Source: a bacterium
Lineage (GTDB): Bacteria; Patescibacteriota; Patescibacteriia; JAZDEU01
Direction of reading: 5' to 3'
Assembly: GCA_043808545.1 (NCBI GenBank)
Contig: JAZDEU010000002.1
Coordinates: forward strand, 1-32,972
DNA length: 32,972 nt
Position numbers and translations under genes: made by a program. Positions 15,607-22,461 of this stretch are shown in pieces. The notes under the pieces are model-generated. The model was not told the DNA's origin and did no database searches. It saw only the letters and a program-made list of their open reading frames with translations. Position 1 is the stretch's first letter. Each line of letters starts with the position of its first letter.

Positions 15607-17421
15607 ATGCAAACTACAGAACAAAAAGATCAATATAATAAACTATCATATCTAAAAAAAATTGTCAAATATTTATTCTTTCTTTTTATATTTCTTTTGC
15701 CCATCCAAACCCGCTATATCTATCAACAAGCCACGCTAAATAATGGCGCGTGGGAATACGGGACTTTAAGCTTATACGCGACGGAAATCTTGTTAGGGAC
15801 AATAATTATTTTGTATATAATTGGATTTATAGGGGCGTATTCTAGGGCATATCGCAATATGCCCCTACAATTATACACTGAAAACGGGAAAAAAAATCTA
15901 AAAAATCCGCTTATTTTTTTACCGCTCGCATTACTGCTTTGGTCTGTAGCATCTATCTTTTGGGCTTATGACAAAATGCTCGCTTGGGATAGATGCATAA
16001 TTTTAATGGAAGGGATTATAGTGTATTTGTTCATTATTAAAATCCCCCTCTTTTCCAAAGAACCTGCCCTGAGCGATAGCCGAATGGGGGGGTTAGGGCC
16101 TGCCTGCCTGTCTGCGCAGGCAGGCGCAGGCAGGGAGATTTCTCCAAGCGCAAAACCTACTCAAATAGAAAACGCCTCCAGATATAACAACCCAGAAAAA
16201 TCCCCCTGTATCCCCCTTTACAAAAGGGGGAGCTATCTAATCCCCCTAATCGCCAGCGCAATCTGCCAATCAATGCTCGCTATTTACCAGTTCGCTTCCC
16301 AGCAAATAATTGCGAATAAATGGCTTGGCATAGCATCCCACTTGCCAGAAACACTCGGGACATCTGTTGTTGAAACGCCGCTTCGCCGATGGTTGCGCGC
16401 TTACGGAAGCCTGCCGCATCCTAATATTCTAGCGGCATATTTAGGAATTGCTCTCCTTCTCTTTATTATATTTATCTTCAATAAATCTCCAAAAAAAAAT
16501 CAGCAATCCGAACTTACAAATACCGAAGAATTAAAACAACGATTATCAGGGATACTAAAAGTATTCGCTATTTTCTTAATAAGCGCAGCTATTATTTTTA
16601 CATTTTCCCGCGCCGTATGGATAGGATTATTTCTCTCTATAATAATATTTTTAGTCTTTAATAAACTACCGCGTCATCCTGATAAAAATAAAACACGGCG
16701 TCATCCTTCCCCCGCTTTAGCGGGGGAAGGATATCTCAAAATGACACAAAATTTTCCCTTTATCCCATCTTTCGGTTTTTTTATTTTATTCCTCTTCGTT
16801 TTATTCCTCGCGCGCGAACCTATAATGGCGAGAATTTCAAATTCAAACAGATTAGAACAAAAATCAAACCAAGAACGTATGTTATCCTATAAAGAAAGCA
16901 AGGATATTATAAAAGAAAACTGGTTGATTGGAACTGGAATTGGAAATTACACTCTTGCTTTATACAAAAAAAATCCAAGTCTTTCCGCTTACGAATACCA
17001 GCCTGTTCATAATTTATTTATACTAATATTCGCCGAACTAGGAATCTTCGGCTTATTGATTTTTTTATTATTCCTTTTTTATATTACTAAAAAAATTATA
17101 CAAAATCACTTAGTGTCTGTTGAAATATTCGCAGAGTGTCATTCCGACCGAGCGAACCAGCCACCCAAACGGCTGGTTCGTAAGTGGAGGAATCTGTTTA
17201 TTAAACCAAATTTGGTGCGGTCAACAGATCCCCATTCGGCTATCGCTCAGGGCAGGCTCTCGGCTACACTCGGGATGACAAAGGAATACTATTTCAACAG
17301 CAACTACTTCATCATCTTATTTATATTCATACTTCTAATCTCTCTTTTTGACCATTATTTCTGGAGCCTGTATTTCGGAGTAATACTCTTCTGGATTTGT
17401 ATGGGAATTATAATCTCTTAA
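15607..17421 (+). CDS. O-antigen ligase (Wzy_C)-family membrane protein with multiple repeat-derived inserts
   Basis: Multiple TM helices; RAYGSLPHPNILAAYL, TFSRAVW, GTGIGNY, PVHNLFILIFAELG and LFDHYFW motifs. Confidence 0.88.
   Translation: MQTTEQKDQYNKLSYLKKIVKYLFFLFIFLLPIQTRYIYQQATLNNGAWEYGTLSLYATEILLGTIIILYIIGFIGAYSRAYRNMPLQLYTENGKKNLKNPLIFLPLALLLWSVASIFWAYDKMLAWDRCIILMEGIIVYLFIIKIPLFSKEPALSDSRMGGLGPACLSAQAGAGREISPSAKPTQIENASRYNNPEKSPCIPLYKRGSYLIPLIASAICQSMLAIYQFASQQIIANKWLGIASHLPETLGTSVVETPLRRWLRAYGSLPHPNILAAYLGIALLLFIIFIFNKSPKKNQQSELTNTEELKQRLSGILKVFAIFLISAAIIFTFSRAVWIGLFLSIIIFLVFNKLPRHPDKNKTRRHPSPALAGEGYLKMTQNFPFIPSFGFFILFLFVLFLAREPIMARISNSNRLEQKSNQERMLSYKESKDIIKENWLIGTGIGNYTLALYKKNPSLSAYEYQPVHNLFILIFAELGIFGLLIFLLFLFYITKKIIQNHLVSVEIFAECHSDRANQPPKRLVRKWRNLFIKPNLVRSTDPHSAIAQGRLSATLGMTKEYYFNSNYFIILFIFILLISLFDHYFWSLYFGVILFWICMGIIIS
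17111..17306. mobile_element. Composite MITE-like element inside the ligase CDS
   Basis: Terminal inverted repeats TAGT..CTGTTGAAATA / TATTTCAACAG..ACTA enclose a TGTCAT...ATGACA doublet (17137-17280). Same architecture as 29104-29267. Confidence 0.7.
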
Positions 17422-17445
17422 TTATTGTATAAAAAATATATCGGG

Positions 17446-17563
17446 TTGTCATTCCGACCGAAGCGAAGCCCGAAGGATGAGGGCAAGCGAAGCGGAGGAA
17501 TCTCTTTTAATCCCCATAATTTGGATTATTTAAAAGATTCCTCCACTTCGGTCGGAATGACAA
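17446..17563. repeat. TGTCAT-family inverted doublet between convergent genes
   Basis: ttgtcattccgaccgaag...ggaggaatct / agattcctcc...cttcggtcggaatgacaa. Confidence 0.85.
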
Positions 17564-17587
17564 AAAATAATTTTTACGAAAAATTCA

Positions 17588-18544
17588 CTACGCCACTATA
17601 AGCATATCCAAAAGCAATTCTATGTTAACAGAGCTTGACTTTGATTTTAAATCAATATTCATAATACATCTATAAATTTTTTTTAACGCTTCTGTATTAT
17701 AAAAACTGACTTGCGAATATAATTTTTGCGCGACGAACGGATGAATTTTCAACCCTAAAGCTAACGACCTGCTATTCGCCCTATTATCCCTGGCTAGATA
17801 ATCTTTTGCCTCTAATAAAAGTCGATACTGCCGCGCAAGCATAGCCAAAATATAATTTATATTTACGCCCAATCTTATCTGCTCAGTTAATAACCGCAAA
17901 GCAAGCTTCTTATTTTTTGCGCCGATCGCGTCAACTAAATTAAAAATATTATCATCATCTTTAGTTTTCACAAATTTTTTTATATTCTCGCAAGTTACAT
18001 TTTTATCATAGCTGATAATTTTTTCTATTTCATTATTCATGCTCCAAAGATCGCTCCCAATCCTCTCAATTAACATATTTACTGCCTCTGCCTTTATCTC
18101 TCCGCCTTTATCCGATACTTCTTTTATAATCCACTTTTTCAACGCAACACCCTTTAGAAGCTCAAACTCTTGCTTAAAAACAGACCCTGCGTTGAGTCCA
18201 GTCAAAAACTTAAATAACACATCTTTCTCTTTTTTTTCTTCCTCCCAAAAAATAAGAACATTTTCATTCCCGCCTGCATCTTTCTTCAAAAAATCAATTA
18301 TCTCTTTCTGTAAATTTTTATCTTTTCCCTTTGAAATAATGTTCCTTAAAATTATCATCCTTTTTCGCGACATAAAAGAAACCGTTGATATTTGCTTTTT
18401 AAATTCACCGTAAGTTAATTTTTCGCCATCAATATCAGCGAGATTCAAAGATCCGCCTTCAACTTCCCGCAGAAATCTATTTTTCAACTCTTTTAATTTT
18501 TGCAAACTCCGAAATGTATCCGGACCGTATAGGAAGATAATCAT
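17588..18544 (-). CDS. holA: DNA polymerase III delta subunit
   Basis: MIIFLYGPDTFRS start; SFMSRKRMIIL, NEIEK, IFNLVDAI, HPFVAQK and IDLKSK motifs. Confidence 0.93.
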   Translation of the reverse strand: MIIFLYGPDTFRSLQKLKELKNRFLREVEGGSLNLADIDGEKLTYGEFKKQISTVSFMSRKRMIILRNIISKGKDKNLQKEIIDFLKKDAGGNENVLIFWEEEKKEKDVLFKFLTGLNAGSVFKQEFELLKGVALKKWIIKEVSDKGGEIKAEAVNMLIERIGSDLWSMNNEIEKIISYDKNVTCENIKKFVKTKDDDNIFNLVDAIGAKNKKLALRLLTEQIRLGVNINYILAMLARQYRLLLEAKDYLARDNRANSRSLALGLKIHPFVAQKLYSQVSFYNTEALKKIYRCIMNIDLKSKSSSVNIELLLDMLIVA

Positions 18545-18627
18545 ACAATTATTTCAACTTAACCTTTAATTCAAAGGCACTGAGCGTTGGCCGAATGTAT
18601 GGTGTATTAAGCCAATCGTTATATTTT

Positions 18628-18693
18628 TCATTTCCCAGATTTAATCCTATTGCATTGTTTGCATAACATTTGGCAATTCTTTGAAATGGTTTT
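18628..18693 (-). pseudogene. C-terminal remnant of an HNH endonuclease
   Basis: Manual translation KTISKNCQMLCKQCNRIKSGK* matches the HNH tail N.Q.LC..CN..K. It has no start and begins exactly at the 24-bp motif. Confidence 0.7.
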
Positions 18694-18717
18694 TCGGGTC
18701 ATACAGAATATAGGGTT
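18694..18717 (-). repeat. 24-bp site, copy A
   Basis: Minus strand AACCCTATATTCTGTATGACCCGA; 23/24 identical to 20335-20358 on the plus strand. Confidence 0.85.
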
Positions 18718-18820
18718 ACCCAGCAGTGGAATAAATAGCAAGTTCCCACCTTGCCGTGTCAATTATTCCATACATTATCTTGAGCATTAGCTATGGATTT
18801 TGTTAAATCTTATTAGTAAG

Positions 18821-18898
18821 CGAGGGGGGGGGGGGGACAGGGTGGTGTTAAGCCTTAGTTTTGCGCGCCAATTCCTCGTTTAACACCCCCCTTGCCCC
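18821..18898. repeat. Degenerate inverted doublet of the C-rich family containing a G13 run
   Basis: gaggg...ggtggtgttaagcctt (its reverse complement matches aaggcttaacaccccc at ~7791 in glgA) and ttaacaccccccttgcccc. Confidence 0.65.
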
Positions 18899-18950
18899 AT
18901 TCATTTAATGTCAAATTATTTGTTATTTTTTTAAAATTTAAAATCTAAAA

Positions 18951-19931
18951 TCATCCCCCCCGATGGTATTTAATAAATGTCTCCCTTAAATGTTTGTCCG
19001 TAATATGCGTATAAATCTGCGTCGTGGTAATAGAAGAATGTCCTAGCATTGTTTGAACTGACCGAATATCCGCGTCATTAGCGAGTAAATCTGTCGCAAA
19101 CGAATGGCGCAAAGTATGAGGAGAAATCTGTTTCGTTATTCCCGCAACTTTCGCGTATTTTTTTACTATTCTTTGAATAGTCCGCGGAGTTAAAGACTCT
19201 AAACTTTCATCTCTTTTATCTTTCGCCCGATCATGGCTTGAAAATAAAAACGGAGAAACATCCCGCCGAACATCTAAATATTTTTTAATCCAGTACTTAG
19301 ACTGATTAGATAAAAAAACTATCCTAACCTTGCGTCCTTTTCCCCGAACCGTCAACTCCTGAGCTTTGCTTTGGTCTGCCTGCGAAGGCAGGTCTTTTAA
19401 ATCTATTTGCTCTATTTTTAAATTTACCAGTTCTGAAACACGAAGCCCTGTTGAAAATAATGTTTCTAAAATCGCCTTATCGCGAAGCGCGATTAAATTA
19501 TTCCCCTCTTGAGATGGGTTAGGGGTATGTAGCGGAGCATTCAAAAATCGTTCTAACTCGGCGCCTTCTATAAAAGTTATATCTCGCTCCGACATCTTTC
19601 CTAATTCAATTTTTTCCGATGCCAAAGTTTTTACATCAATTTTCGCCAAATATTTTAAAAACGCGCGCAAAGAAATAAGATGGTAATTCTGCGTGCTTTT
19701 TTTCAAAGATTCCCCTTTTTCATTTTCCAGCCTGTTGAGCCACAACCGATATTGCGTAACATCTTCCAGCTTGATTTCAGACGAATCATCTATATTATGC
19801 TCCCCAGCCCAGGCAGCAAATCTTTTTAAATAAAATTCATAATTTTTAACAGTCGCCAAACTGCGATTTTTTTCAATCTCAAGATAGGTCAAAAATTTAG
19901 TTATGTATTTTTGTAGATTTTGATTCGCCAT
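18951..19931 (-). CDS. XerC/XerD-family tyrosine recombinase
   Basis: N-terminal SAM-like domain; RDKAILETLFSTGLRVSEL, GKGRKVR, HTLRHSFAT, LGHSS and TTQIYTH catalytic motifs are intact. Confidence 0.95.
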   Translation of the reverse strand: MANQNLQKYITKFLTYLEIEKNRSLATVKNYEFYLKRFAAWAGEHNIDDSSEIKLEDVTQYRLWLNRLENEKGESLKKSTQNYHLISLRAFLKYLAKIDVKTLASEKIELGKMSERDITFIEGAELERFLNAPLHTPNPSQEGNNLIALRDKAILETLFSTGLRVSELVNLKIEQIDLKDLPSQADQSKAQELTVRGKGRKVRIVFLSNQSKYWIKKYLDVRRDVSPFLFSSHDRAKDKRDESLESLTPRTIQRIVKKYAKVAGITKQISPHTLRHSFATDLLANDADIRSVQTMLGHSSITTTQIYTHITDKHLRETFIKYHRGG

Positions 19932-19970
19932 ATTTTATATTTTACGACATTACAAAATAATATGCAAACA

Positions 19971-19998
19971 TTGACATATTCTCTATTCTTGTTATTAT
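19971..19998 (+). promoter_or_regulatory. Putative tRNA-Ile promoter
   Basis: TTGACA-N16-TATTAT with an extended TG. Confidence 0.5.
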
Positions 19999-20056
19999 AT
20001 AAATAAAAGACAAAAGCATAAAGCTGGCTTCTTTGTTTTCTTGTTTTCTTGAAAAA

Positions 20057-20130
20057 GGGCGTATAGCTCAGTTGGTTAGAGCGTTACACTGATAATGTAA
20101 AGGTCCATGGTTCGAATCCATGTACGCCCA
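20057..20130 (+). tRNA. tRNA-Ile (GAU)
   Basis: GGGCGTATAGCTCAGTTGGTTAGAGCG TTACA CT GAT AA TGTAA...GGTTCGAATCC...TACGCCCA; CCA not encoded. Confidence 0.96.
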
Positions 20131-20140
20131 CTAATTTTTT

Positions 20141-20166
20141 AAAACGAGGTTTCTCCTCGTTTTTTA
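20141..20166 (+). terminator. Intrinsic terminator after tRNA-Ile
   Basis: AAAACGAGG-tttct-CCTCGTTTTT. Confidence 0.7.
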
Positions 20167-20274
20167 TTTTACGCTTTTCTATAGATATTCAAAAATATTT
20201 TTAAAGGGAACTATAGCCAATTAAATATTTTTTCGTGAGTGGAGAAATCCCTTTTAAATAGGCTAAATAATAAC

Positions 20275-20328
20275 AGATTCCTCCGCTCCGACCCCCACCC
20301 AGAGCTCTGGGTGGGGGTCGGAATGACA
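20275..20328. repeat. TGTCAT-family half element containing a perfect GC-rich palindrome
   Basis: agattcctccgct-CCGACCCCCACCCAGAGCTCTGGGTGGGGGTCGG-aatgaca. Confidence 0.78.
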
Positions 20329-20334
20329 TTCTCC

Positions 20335-20358
20335 AACCCTATATTCTGTATGAGCCGA
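20335..20358 (+). repeat. 24-bp site, copy B
   Basis: AACCCTATATTCTGTATGAGCCGA, inverted relative to copy A. Confidence 0.85.
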
Positions 20359-20524
20359 TAATCCGCGAGTGGAACGGGCGCACTTAACAGACGAGATAGA
20401 ATTTTATCAGCAAGGAAATATTTGCAAAACTTTTGAAGAACGGGAAATGAGAATAGAAAAACATATCAAAAAAACACGCCAGCGCGCGTCTTTAATTGAA
20501 AAAATTTTTCACACACAAAACTAA
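20357..20524 (+). pseudogene. Fragment of an integrase-core (IS481-like) transposase
   Basis: Manual translation DNPRVERAHLTDEIEFYQQGNICKTFEE... resembles the N..VER.H.TD..EFY helix carrying the catalytic Glu. It has no start codon, and the 3' part may be unrelated. Confidence 0.65.
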
Positions 20525-20560
20525 CTACAAAACTATATTGAGATAGACACAATTTACTAA

Positions 20561-20956
20561 CTAAATAAAGCCATTTTCCTTTAATACCTTCTTCACTTCA
20601 GAAACGATCTCATCAGTCGTAAACTGCGCTTTTATTAAATATCCATTAGCCCCTAATTCCCGCGCTTTTTCCATGTCAGAATCTTGCCCTAAATTAGATA
20701 AAACAATAACAAGCGTCTTTGCCGTATTCGGATCTTTATCCTCCCTTAACTTTTTTAAAATCTCAAATCCGTTAAGCGCCGGCAGCATAATGTCTAAAAG
20801 AATCAAATTCGGTTTTTCTTCTTTTATTTTTTTTATCGCCTCTCCGCCGTCAATAACAGTCGCAACATTAAAACCGGCTACAATTAATTTTTTTACGCAT
20901 ATCTCTCTTAGGAGTTGGTCATCTTCCACTAAAATAATTTTTATCGCACTATTCAT
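20561..20956 (-). CDS. Single-domain response regulator (receiver)
   Basis: IILVEDD, LILLDIMLP, LSNL and YLIK motifs. Start placed at ATG 20956. Confidence 0.92.
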   Translation of the reverse strand: MNSAIKIILVEDDQLLREICVKKLIVAGFNVATVIDGGEAIKKIKEEKPNLILLDIMLPALNGFEILKKLREDKDPNTAKTLVIVLSNLGQDSDMEKARELGANGYLIKAQFTTDEIVSEVKKVLKENGFI

Positions 20957-21015
20957 ATGCAATGCAATAAGCAAAATTATTCCAAAATTTCAACATAAAA
21001 AAATCTGAAAAACTG

Positions 21016-22461
21016 CTATTGCAAATTAATGTTTCTTTCTTTTTTTGTAATCGGGATGGAAAATAAAACTTCGGTGCCTTCGCCTTCTTTGCTCTTTATT
21101 GCAATTTTACCTCTATGCCAATCTATTATATTTTTTACTATAAATAATCCCAGTCCAGTGCCTTCCGCCTGCATCCTCACGACATTGCTGCCTCTAAAAA
21201 ATTTGCTATACAATAAATTCTGCTCTTTTATTGGAATTCCAATTCCATTATCTTTCACGATTACTATTAAATTCTTTTTTTCCAGTTTTATATTTATATC
21301 AATAATCCCATTATGCGGAGTATATTTTAAAGCGTTATCTAAAATATTAAATAAGGCTAATTCCATTTTTTCTTTATCTGCGTATATTATAGGAAACTTT
21401 TCGTGTTTATTAATATTTAATGCAATATTTTTATTCTTTTTTAAATTTTGAAAGCTACTTAATGCATCATTAAAAATTTGCTCAAAATCGCAATTTTCAA
21501 ATTTAATGCCAGCCCGCTGGTCTTCAATGCTCGCAACATTAAGCAAATCGTTCGCCAATTTTATAACTCGCTCATTGCTTTTATACCCCTTTTTTAACAT
21601 TTCTTTCTGTTCATTATTTAATTCTCCGGCATCTCCATTCGCAAGCGCTTCAAATACCCACTTTATTCCAGTAAGCGGAGTCCTTAGCTGATGCGCGGCA
21701 ATAGATATAAAATCGGATTTCATCTGGCTTATTAATTCATCTCTCTCCTTATTTTCTTTCAACTTTTGCGACATCTTATTAAACGCGCTGGCAAGATGAC
21801 CAAATTCATCATTTGACGTAACCTCTATTTTGTGGTTTACATTTCCTTTGCTAACATATGAAACTCCTTCCATTAAAGAATCTAATGGTTTAGTAAAACT
21901 TTTTGAAAGATAAAATGAAATTATAAAAGCGCACAAAATTATTGGAATAAAAAAAGCAATGCTTCCTTCTGCGATATTTTTTTGCACAGCGGAAATTCTT
22001 TTCAAAGAAATGCCCAAATAAAAATAATAAAATTCTGGATAATTTTTTATATGTATAGGTTCTATTATGATCTTTATTTTCTCCCCATTCTTGTAGTAAT
22101 TCAAATCTTCAATTTTTTCCGATGCAAGACCTTGCGAAATATTGTCAATCTCTTTATTTTGCAGCGATACATCGTCCGATAATAATATCTTGCCGCTAGG
22201 AGAAACCACCCACCAAAAAAGGGTGTCTTGCGATTCATCAATATGTTTGAGCAATTCTAAAGGCCAAAGTCTCGTTAAAGAACCTGTTTCAACAGCCCTT
22301 GATGCTAATCTTGCCGCTAATGTATTTTCTTCTATTAAAGAATCTCTGACTCTCGTGCTAGCTTGGATAATATTATAAGTCAAAACAATCAATCCAGCAA
22401 ATAAACTTGCTAAAATCATTAGCAACAATACTCTTTTAAATATATTTAATCTTATATTCAT
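21016..22461 (-). CDS. Membrane sensor histidine kinase (2 TM, HAMP, HisKA, HATPase)
   Basis: DEFGHLASAFN HAMP; AHQLRTPL H-box; NILDNALKY, DNGIGI and GTGLGL boxes. Confidence 0.95.
   Translation of the reverse strand: MNIRLNIFKRVLLLMILASLFAGLIVLTYNIIQASTRVRDSLIEENTLAARLASRAVETGSLTRLWPLELLKHIDESQDTLFWWVVSPSGKILLSDDVSLQNKEIDNISQGLASEKIEDLNYYKNGEKIKIIIEPIHIKNYPEFYYFYLGISLKRISAVQKNIAEGSIAFFIPIILCAFIISFYLSKSFTKPLDSLMEGVSYVSKGNVNHKIEVTSNDEFGHLASAFNKMSQKLKENKERDELISQMKSDFISIAAHQLRTPLTGIKWVFEALANGDAGELNNEQKEMLKKGYKSNERVIKLANDLLNVASIEDQRAGIKFENCDFEQIFNDALSSFQNLKKNKNIALNINKHEKFPIIYADKEKMELALFNILDNALKYTPHNGIIDINIKLEKKNLIVIVKDNGIGIPIKEQNLLYSKFFRGSNVVRMQAEGTGLGLFIVKNIIDWHRGKIAIKSKEGEGTEVLFSIPITKKERNINLQ

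Follow-up and report, generated by a model that had tools for sequence, protein, structure and literature searches.

The locus described here lies on contig C2 of a draft patescibacterial genome (878,563 bp in 71 contigs, 82% complete), and the window is the whole stretch of 32,972 nucleotides that was analysed. The gene holA, encoding the delta subunit of DNA polymerase III, occupies 17588..18544 on the minus strand (Pfam DNA_pol3_delta_C, E = 7e-24; DNA_pol3_delta, E = 2.4e-7). It is followed by the 3' remnant of a GmrSD_N+HNH gene, 21 codons and a stop codon at 18628..18693 (-), and by a truncated miniature element (MITE), here called MITE-2, at 18695..18898 (+). Beyond these lie xer, the gene of a XerC/XerD-like tyrosine recombinase at 18951..19931 (-; Phage_integrase, E = 3.7e-39), and a tRNA-Ile(GAT) gene at 20057..20131 (+) found with ARAGORN and scoring 78.5 bits against the Rfam tRNA model. 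A second truncated miniature element, MITE-1, at 20222..20357 (+), runs into the remnant of an rve-type (IS481/IS3-like) transposase gene at 20357..20524 (+), and the first intact gene past these right-hand relics encodes a response regulator at 20561..20974 (-; Response_reg, E = 3.2e-23). In an Rfam scan of 17000-21500 at E ≤ 1 the tRNA was the only credible match, the other three being far under their gathering scores.

Both genes in the middle of the locus are core genes. The recombinase gene is the sole PF00589 match in the assembly; its product of 326 aa scores 228 and 223 bits against the NCBIfam XerD and XerC models, under the equivalog cut-offs of both, and a match was present in all 20 relatives searched, the best 14 being 46-78% identical over nearly their full length. 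In the two nearest genera holA follows xer after 90 bp (G001) and 18 bp (G002), and by this comparison of gene order the xer-holA adjacency is ancestral; at the present locus the gap measures 406 bp and is occupied by MITE-2 and the HNH stump. The recombinase gene is thereby placed outside the mobile element. The tRNA gene is the only tRNA-Ile among the 24 tRNAs that ARAGORN finds in the assembly.

These core genes are bracketed by an inverted 24-nt motif, TCGGGTCATACAGAATATAGGGTT at 18694-18717 and its reverse complement, with a single G/C difference, at 20335-20358. The original prediction had placed this pair on the right coordinates and strands, and 23 of 24 positions are indeed identical. 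A repeat search lengthens the pair to 30 nt with 90% complementarity (18688-18717 / 20335-20364), and in 100 dinucleotide-preserving shuffles of the window there was not one match to the motif at three or fewer mismatches. Comparison with the other copies puts the probable element termini at 18695 and 20357; the T and the A at the two extremes of the 24-mer would then belong to the flanks. That no target duplication surrounds the pair had also been remarked, and comparison of TGGTTTTT with ATAATCCG bears this out. A parse of the motif as 11-6-11 did not survive: between the left arm and the reverse-complemented right arm 2 of 11 positions match, i.e., there is no dyad symmetry. Short open reading frames (ORFs) reading 'NPIFCM(T/S)R' pass through both copies and were rejected as genes, being read-through of the inverted repeat; the same reading also opens a long ORF beside the insertion sequence (IS) at locus L037, described below.

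Each terminus abuts a gene that has lost its 5' part, and both gene identities proposed originally were upheld. The HNH tail on the left (18631-18693, minus strand) aligns at 86% identity to the last residues, 356-376, of a GmrSD_N+HNH protein (376 aa) from a relative in the same class, and its DNA shows 85% identity over 72 nt to genes in three genomes (G371, G074, G331). The full-length 376-aa relative matches GmrSD_N at E = 9.4e-19 and HNH at E = 1.8e-12; the stump by itself gives a weak match to Pfam HNH that lies under the cut-off (E = 0.0024). When the whole assembly was searched for the GmrSD_N+HNH gene, residues 356-376 were the only part recovered. The integrase-core (rve) tail on the right (20357-~20455, plus strand) has 73% identity to residues ~313-345 of a transposase (427 aa) from another relative, in an alignment of residues 2-34 of the stump to G145:C56. 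The related full-length 427-aa ORF carries rve_3 (E = 1.3e-12) together with HTH_32 and rve, and the right stump alone has no Pfam match. Homology covers about 33 codons, as far as ~20455, from where the frame diverges up to the stop codon; the stump is matched in 9 of 300 other genomes of the class at E ≤ 0.01. Both stumps start within one or two bases of the element terminus, and a flush start of this kind is what remains when a transposable element inserts into a gene.

In other genomes the motif is the end of an insertion sequence. We scanned 596 Gb of sequence, one genome per species, for TCATAC[AG][CG]AAT[AT]TA[AG]GGTT, a pattern loose enough for chance matches in a collection of this size, and examined 79 of the 85 stretches. 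At 59 of the 79 loci, versus about 4 expected by chance, the pattern is preceded by GG[ACG], and the consensus of the terminal inverted repeat is GG[ACG]TCATAC[AG][CG]AAT[AT]TAGGGTT. By record title, the 59 prefixed loci come mostly from metagenome-assembled genomes (MAGs) of CPR/Patescibacteria and of Nitrospirales, the CPR groups being Moranbacteria, Berkelbacteria, Doudnabacteria, Kerfeldbacteria, Saccharibacteria, and Parcubacteria; many of these 59 lie within ~140 bp of a contig end. An ISL3 transposase stands beside the motif at 17 of the 79 loci (tblastn, E ≤ 1e-3). Two elements of ~1.42 kb are complete, one in a Parcubacteria MAG (L037, 2001..3415) and one in a Berkelbacteria MAG (L069, 2001..3414); in both the motif is inverted at the two ends, 1414-1415 bp apart, and an ORF matches PF01610 (DDE_Tnp_ISL3), at E = 1e-48 with the whole model covered in L037 and at E = 1.4e-44 in L069. 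At all 11 loci examined for this, the transposase is encoded in two frames that overlap. Relic IS termini had been offered originally as the alternative to a dif-like site, and this alternative was the right one: the motif bounds ISL3-family insertion sequences and their MITEs.

The MITEs were found in the genome under study itself. A 20-nt core of the motif, allowing four or fewer mismatches, has eight credible copies, two on C2, one on C13, three on C20, and two on C27; nine further core matches at 4-5 mismatches have unrelated flanks and were left out as chance, and two more diverged motif ends lie at C27:16077-16412. A complete MITE-1 of 212 bp (C27:27223-27434) and a second copy of ~205 bp (C20:12813-13016) are non-coding and have the motif inverted at both ends, and a third copy (C13:1-143) is cut by the start of its contig. 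The MITE-1 copies are 95.6-97.9% alike by blastn, a likeness suggesting that the family was active fairly recently. MITE-2 is complete at C27:16077-16412, where its 336 bp end on both sides in related, more diverged inverted repeats. A relative of MITE-1, ~270 bp long and with the same ends, is present in G002, which belongs to another genus of the same family. All of these elements are short, non-coding, and multi-copy, with inverted repeats common to the autonomous 1.42-kb IS, and they are classed as MITEs on these grounds.

Both copies in the window are truncated. The MITE-1 copy (95.6% identity over 135 nt to C27:27223-27434 by blastn) keeps positions 3-135 of the 212-bp element, with its outer repeat at 20335-20357 and the other end missing. 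It contains a perfect palindrome of 18+18 nt at 20287-20322, and MITE-1 seems to be an inverted-repeat pair inside which a second, unrelated palindromic repeat is nested. The MITE-2 copy keeps ~205 bp, including the intact outer ISL3-type inverted repeat (18695-18718) and a G/C-rich hairpin at 18822-18898 in its interior; it is 77.5% identical over 160 nt to C27:16222-16372, and it has lost ~135 bp on its inner side together with the second inverted repeat. The bracket is thus composed of two different half-elements, each without the end that faced xer or the tRNA gene.

ISL3-family elements are expected to generate an 8-bp target-site duplication upon insertion. A clean duplication was detected only at the G002 MITE, which is flanked by a perfect 8-bp direct repeat (8/8, ATATTTTG); the C27 copy of MITE-2 has an abutting repeat of 6 nt, or 7/8 under one choice of end. 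There is none at L037, at L069, at the MITE-1 copies of C20 and C27, or around the window pair. This last result bears on a reading in which 18695-20357 forms a pseudo-compound transposon or an invertible segment, whose cargo of xer and tRNA-Ile could be excised, moved or flipped by a cognate ISL3 transposase supplied in trans. The two ends are oriented as a proper transposon pair and are 23/24 identical, and the likeness of the MITE-1 copies speaks for fairly recent activity in the family; the pair, however, has no flanking target duplication, and the ancestral xer-holA adjacency implies that xer did not arrive with the ends. Excision would moreover be costly, with the only tRNA-Ile and the only Xer of the assembly inside the segment. 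Nor is a cognate transposase assembled: there is none between the two window copies, and tblastn with four ORFs from the CPR elements returned nothing below E = 0.05 in this assembly, which is 82% complete. The only PF01610 matches in the assembly, at 10 contig ends, come from a second ISL3 element whose ends are different. We regard a mobile xer-tRNA segment as very unlikely; were it real, it would offer a CPR genome a route to shuffle or export housekeeping genes. A candidate transposase remnant at 18718-18770 was considered and rejected: beyond the repeat, likeness to L037, L044, and L050 at their transposase-proximal end extends over just seven more bases (TTACCCA), and tblastn found nothing. 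Most contig ends of this assembly fall in repeats, and a copy of the cognate transposase could be unassembled.

The original prediction had favoured, as one possibility, a CPR dif-like site acting as a hotspot of integration, capture or inversion. A dif site consists of two inverted arms of ~11 bp around a spacer of 6-8 bp and is present in one copy per replicon, at the replication terminus. The observations that invite this reading are that the assembly's one tyrosine recombinase gene sits between the inverted copies, that truncated foreign genes adjoin both of them, and that the sole motif copy among the xer loci of relatives, the G002 MITE, sits on the same contig as xer at a distance of 7 kb. 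The motif is not a dif site because it fails on symmetry, copy number, and linkage: against the expected dyad stand arms that match at 2/11, and against a single copy stand at least eight copies on four contigs. Allowing four or fewer mismatches of 19, the motif is absent from 1.5-5 kb around xer at 16 of 17 xer loci from relatives, and no xer homologue lies within 2 kb of any of the 79 motif loci of other genomes. Cumulative GC skew falls steadily over 14-27 kb of the window and makes no turn at 18-20 kb, although skew here tracks the coding strand and the assembly is split into 71 contigs. In many other genomes the motif forms the inverted repeats of elements with a DDE transposase, intact IS among them, and it shows no linkage to xer; such a combination had been named beforehand as speaking against a dif site. 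A dif-like site of the adjacent single Xer, serving foreign-gene capture or inversion of xer and the tRNA gene, is therefore unsupported, and we hold it to be exceedingly improbable.

A conserved Xer site beside xer was also sought within 350 bp on each side of the gene at 12 loci of the class. The only recurrent 11-mer was TGTCGTA[ACT]AAT, found just upstream of the start codon at 7 of the 12 loci, and it looks like an extended -10 element rather than a dif site. Of the roughly ten motif ends found here, two fall less than 1 kb from xer, and in G002 the one copy is 7 kb distant from it; we regard this closeness as a probable coincidence.

The continuity of the locus was addressed with sequencing runs. 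The stretch is contained in four runs of one study, kept as Logan contigs. The left junction is spanned colinearly by contigs of run X1 (record 1, 18400-19922) and run X3 (record 17, 18400-18815). On the right, the path from tRNA-Ile to the rve remnant crosses a 135-bp repeat, and the bracket might in part be an assembly artefact in which the right copy does not adjoin xer. Such an error would fit an assembly most of whose contig ends lie in repeat families and in which contig C13 ends in a MITE-1 copy; among the Logan pieces listed, moreover, none bridges 20131 to 20358, and those matching 20222-20356 run on into the flanks of other copies. The window copy of MITE-1 nevertheless differs from the others (95.6% identity) and has its own truncation at ~20222, which provides the assembler with unique anchors, and run X1 has depth in every bin of 20094-20478. 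We consider a misjoined right flank distinctly unlikely, and the identity of the motif would stay unchanged by it. No Logan joint links the two motif copies, a result which cannot show the absence of inversion, as these contigs drop rare variants. The one joint on opposite strands (18831/18873, run X4) falls inside the G/C hairpin of MITE-2. Among the pieces listed, one from X3 joins 18942 to 20064 at depth 73; its matches are confined to the tRNA and a common AT-rich stretch, and it is taken to come from another organism.

What the sequences show directly is that the motif forms the inverted ends of an ISL3-family IS, widespread in CPR/Patescibacteria, and of its MITEs, that it is multi-copy and unlinked to xer, and that two truncated elements meet two truncated genes exactly at their termini. 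We hold the overall account to be very probable, with the window copies as surviving outer ends of two different MITEs that inserted independently and with no part for Xer. In the sequence of events that we propose, MITE-2 or its full-length parent would have transposed into a GmrSD_N+HNH endonuclease gene at codon 355/356, and MITE-1 or its full-length parent into an rve-type transposase gene near codon 313. Binding of the inverted repeats by an ISL3-type DDE transposase, and its joining of the ends to target DNA, would account for the exact start of each gene fragment at the terminus of an element. Deletions at a later stage may then have removed the inner half from either element and the 5' part from either gene; adjacent deletion mediated by an IS could suffice, as could the ordinary decay of a small genome, and the order of insertion and deletion events is likewise inferred. 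MITE-2 would have come to lie in the xer-holA spacer and MITE-1 downstream of tRNA-Ile, and with two independent insertions beside core genes the inverted layout around xer and tRNA-Ile would be a by-product. The window ends are probably inert now, since no cognate transposase is assembled here.

The finding is an ordinary one by function and by family, ISL3-type ends and MITEs and not a dif site, and its main value is negative in that it removes a tempting but wrong annotation as a 'CPR dif site'. It also yields a usable signature, GG[ACG]TCATAC..TAGGGTT, for ISL3-type IS and MITEs. These elements recur in MAGs of Patescibacteria and Nitrospirales and often lie at contig ends, so that assemblies are broken and accessory genes interrupted by them. 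On a small scale, the window illustrates what an IS insertion and subsequent deletion leave behind in a reduced genome. In the available text of one report, ISL3 is among the IS families found in at least 30 phyla, and CPR go unmentioned in that text (PMC9208149). The publications listed for ISL3 in Patescibacteria and for insertion sequences or MITEs of CPR held, in their accessible portions, no account of these elements and were otherwise general IS surveys; judged from the literature alone, the elements appear to be undescribed.

Compared with known systems, the elements resemble ISL3-family insertion sequences in that the relatives in CPR MAGs are ~1.42 kb long, have inverted repeats of ~23 bp beginning with GG and encode a PF01610 transposase, and in that one derivative, the G002 MITE, has an 8-bp target duplication; an ISL3-family transposon described elsewhere has, in the accessible part of its description, an 11-bp inverted repeat beginning with GGGTC and an 8-bp duplication (PMC9782665). 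The window differs in having two solo ends without a transposase, and the second ISL3 element of this genome has an inverted-repeat sequence different from the motif. The transposase in two overlapping frames, as seen at the 11 loci named above, is a further difference. With the single-recombinase systems of the XerS/XerH type, in which dif lies beside the gene, the only likeness is the closeness of the motif to a single xer, whereas the motif here is multi-copy, lacks dyad-symmetric arms, is unconserved beside xer in relatives, and is an IS end. With MITEs in general the elements share a short length (205-336 bp), a multi-copy state and a place in intergenic or pseudogene DNA, but both window copies are half-elements that have lost one end.

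The transposase of the ISL3-type IS, the 1.42-kb element of CPR genomes whose terminal inverted repeat is the 24-nt motif seen twice in the window, is encoded in two overlapping reading frames at all 11 loci that were examined (L015, L028, L035, L037/L038, L041, L044, L067, L069/L070 and L074). An N-terminal ORF of about 135 aa is followed by a C-terminal ORF of 243-328 aa, with an overlap of 68-71 nt (for example L037:2934-3004), and relative to the N frame the C frame is without exception shifted by +1. Exactly at the opening of the C frame there is a conserved run, T6A4 (GATTTTTTAAAAGAAGA), and the arrangement as a whole resembles that of a gene expressed by programmed +1 frameshifting or by transcriptional slippage.

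The terminal motif of this element was found many times in Nitrospirales MAGs (among others at loci L016, L021, L023, L047 and L057), as the exact AG variant that is present in the window, and one of these loci, L057, retains a remnant of a related transposase with 44-52% identity. The recurrence of the exact variant together with this remnant suggests that the IS family is common to Nitrospirales and CPR. A Kerfeldbacteria MAG (L054, around 2001-2050) has a minimal element of about 45 bp, composed of barely more than two facing inverted-repeat copies, which is possibly a seed form of the MITEs.

The two truncated miniature elements with ISL3-type ends in the window each contain a further structure. 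MITE-2 (18695-18898) includes a G/C-rich hairpin (18822-18898) with a run of 14 G; as the same run is 4 nt shorter in the Logan contigs of sequencing runs X1 and X2, its length is variable or uncertain. The core of MITE-1 (20222-20357) is itself a palindromic MITE-like repeat. Families of such repeats, of about 110-130 bp with a core of GCGTCATTCTGAAC or TGTCATTCCGACC and CTGTTGAAATAGT on the flanks, account for 26 and 8 contig ends of the same genome, among them the start of C12, the end of C14 and the start of C16. Others are present in the window at 17133-17232 and 17446-17563, and a Wzy_C/O-antigen-ligase-like ORF (15607-17421) contains one of these repeats. At least 16 contig ends of this genome (for example C8 end, C10 start and both ends of C27) fall within a second and distinct ISL3-family IS, whose ends are GGGTCTTCTCCCAAACG; ten of these contig ends encode the final ~30 residues of DDE_Tnp_ISL3, and the body of the element is unassembled.

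Upstream of the XerC/XerD-like recombinase gene xer (18951-19931, minus strand), which lies between the two copies of the terminal motif, the sequence TGTCGTA[ACT]AAT is present at 19939-19949 on the minus strand. It occurs 5' of xer in seven of 12 xer loci from the class, the others being L099, L101, L102, L103, L106 and L108 from relatives. In five of the seven the motif is directly 5' of the start codon, beginning 18-26 nt before the matched xer start, while the farther copies are 125 nt (L099) and 49 nt (L106) upstream. The motif looks like an extended -10 element, in which case the xer mRNA would be leaderless or nearly so.
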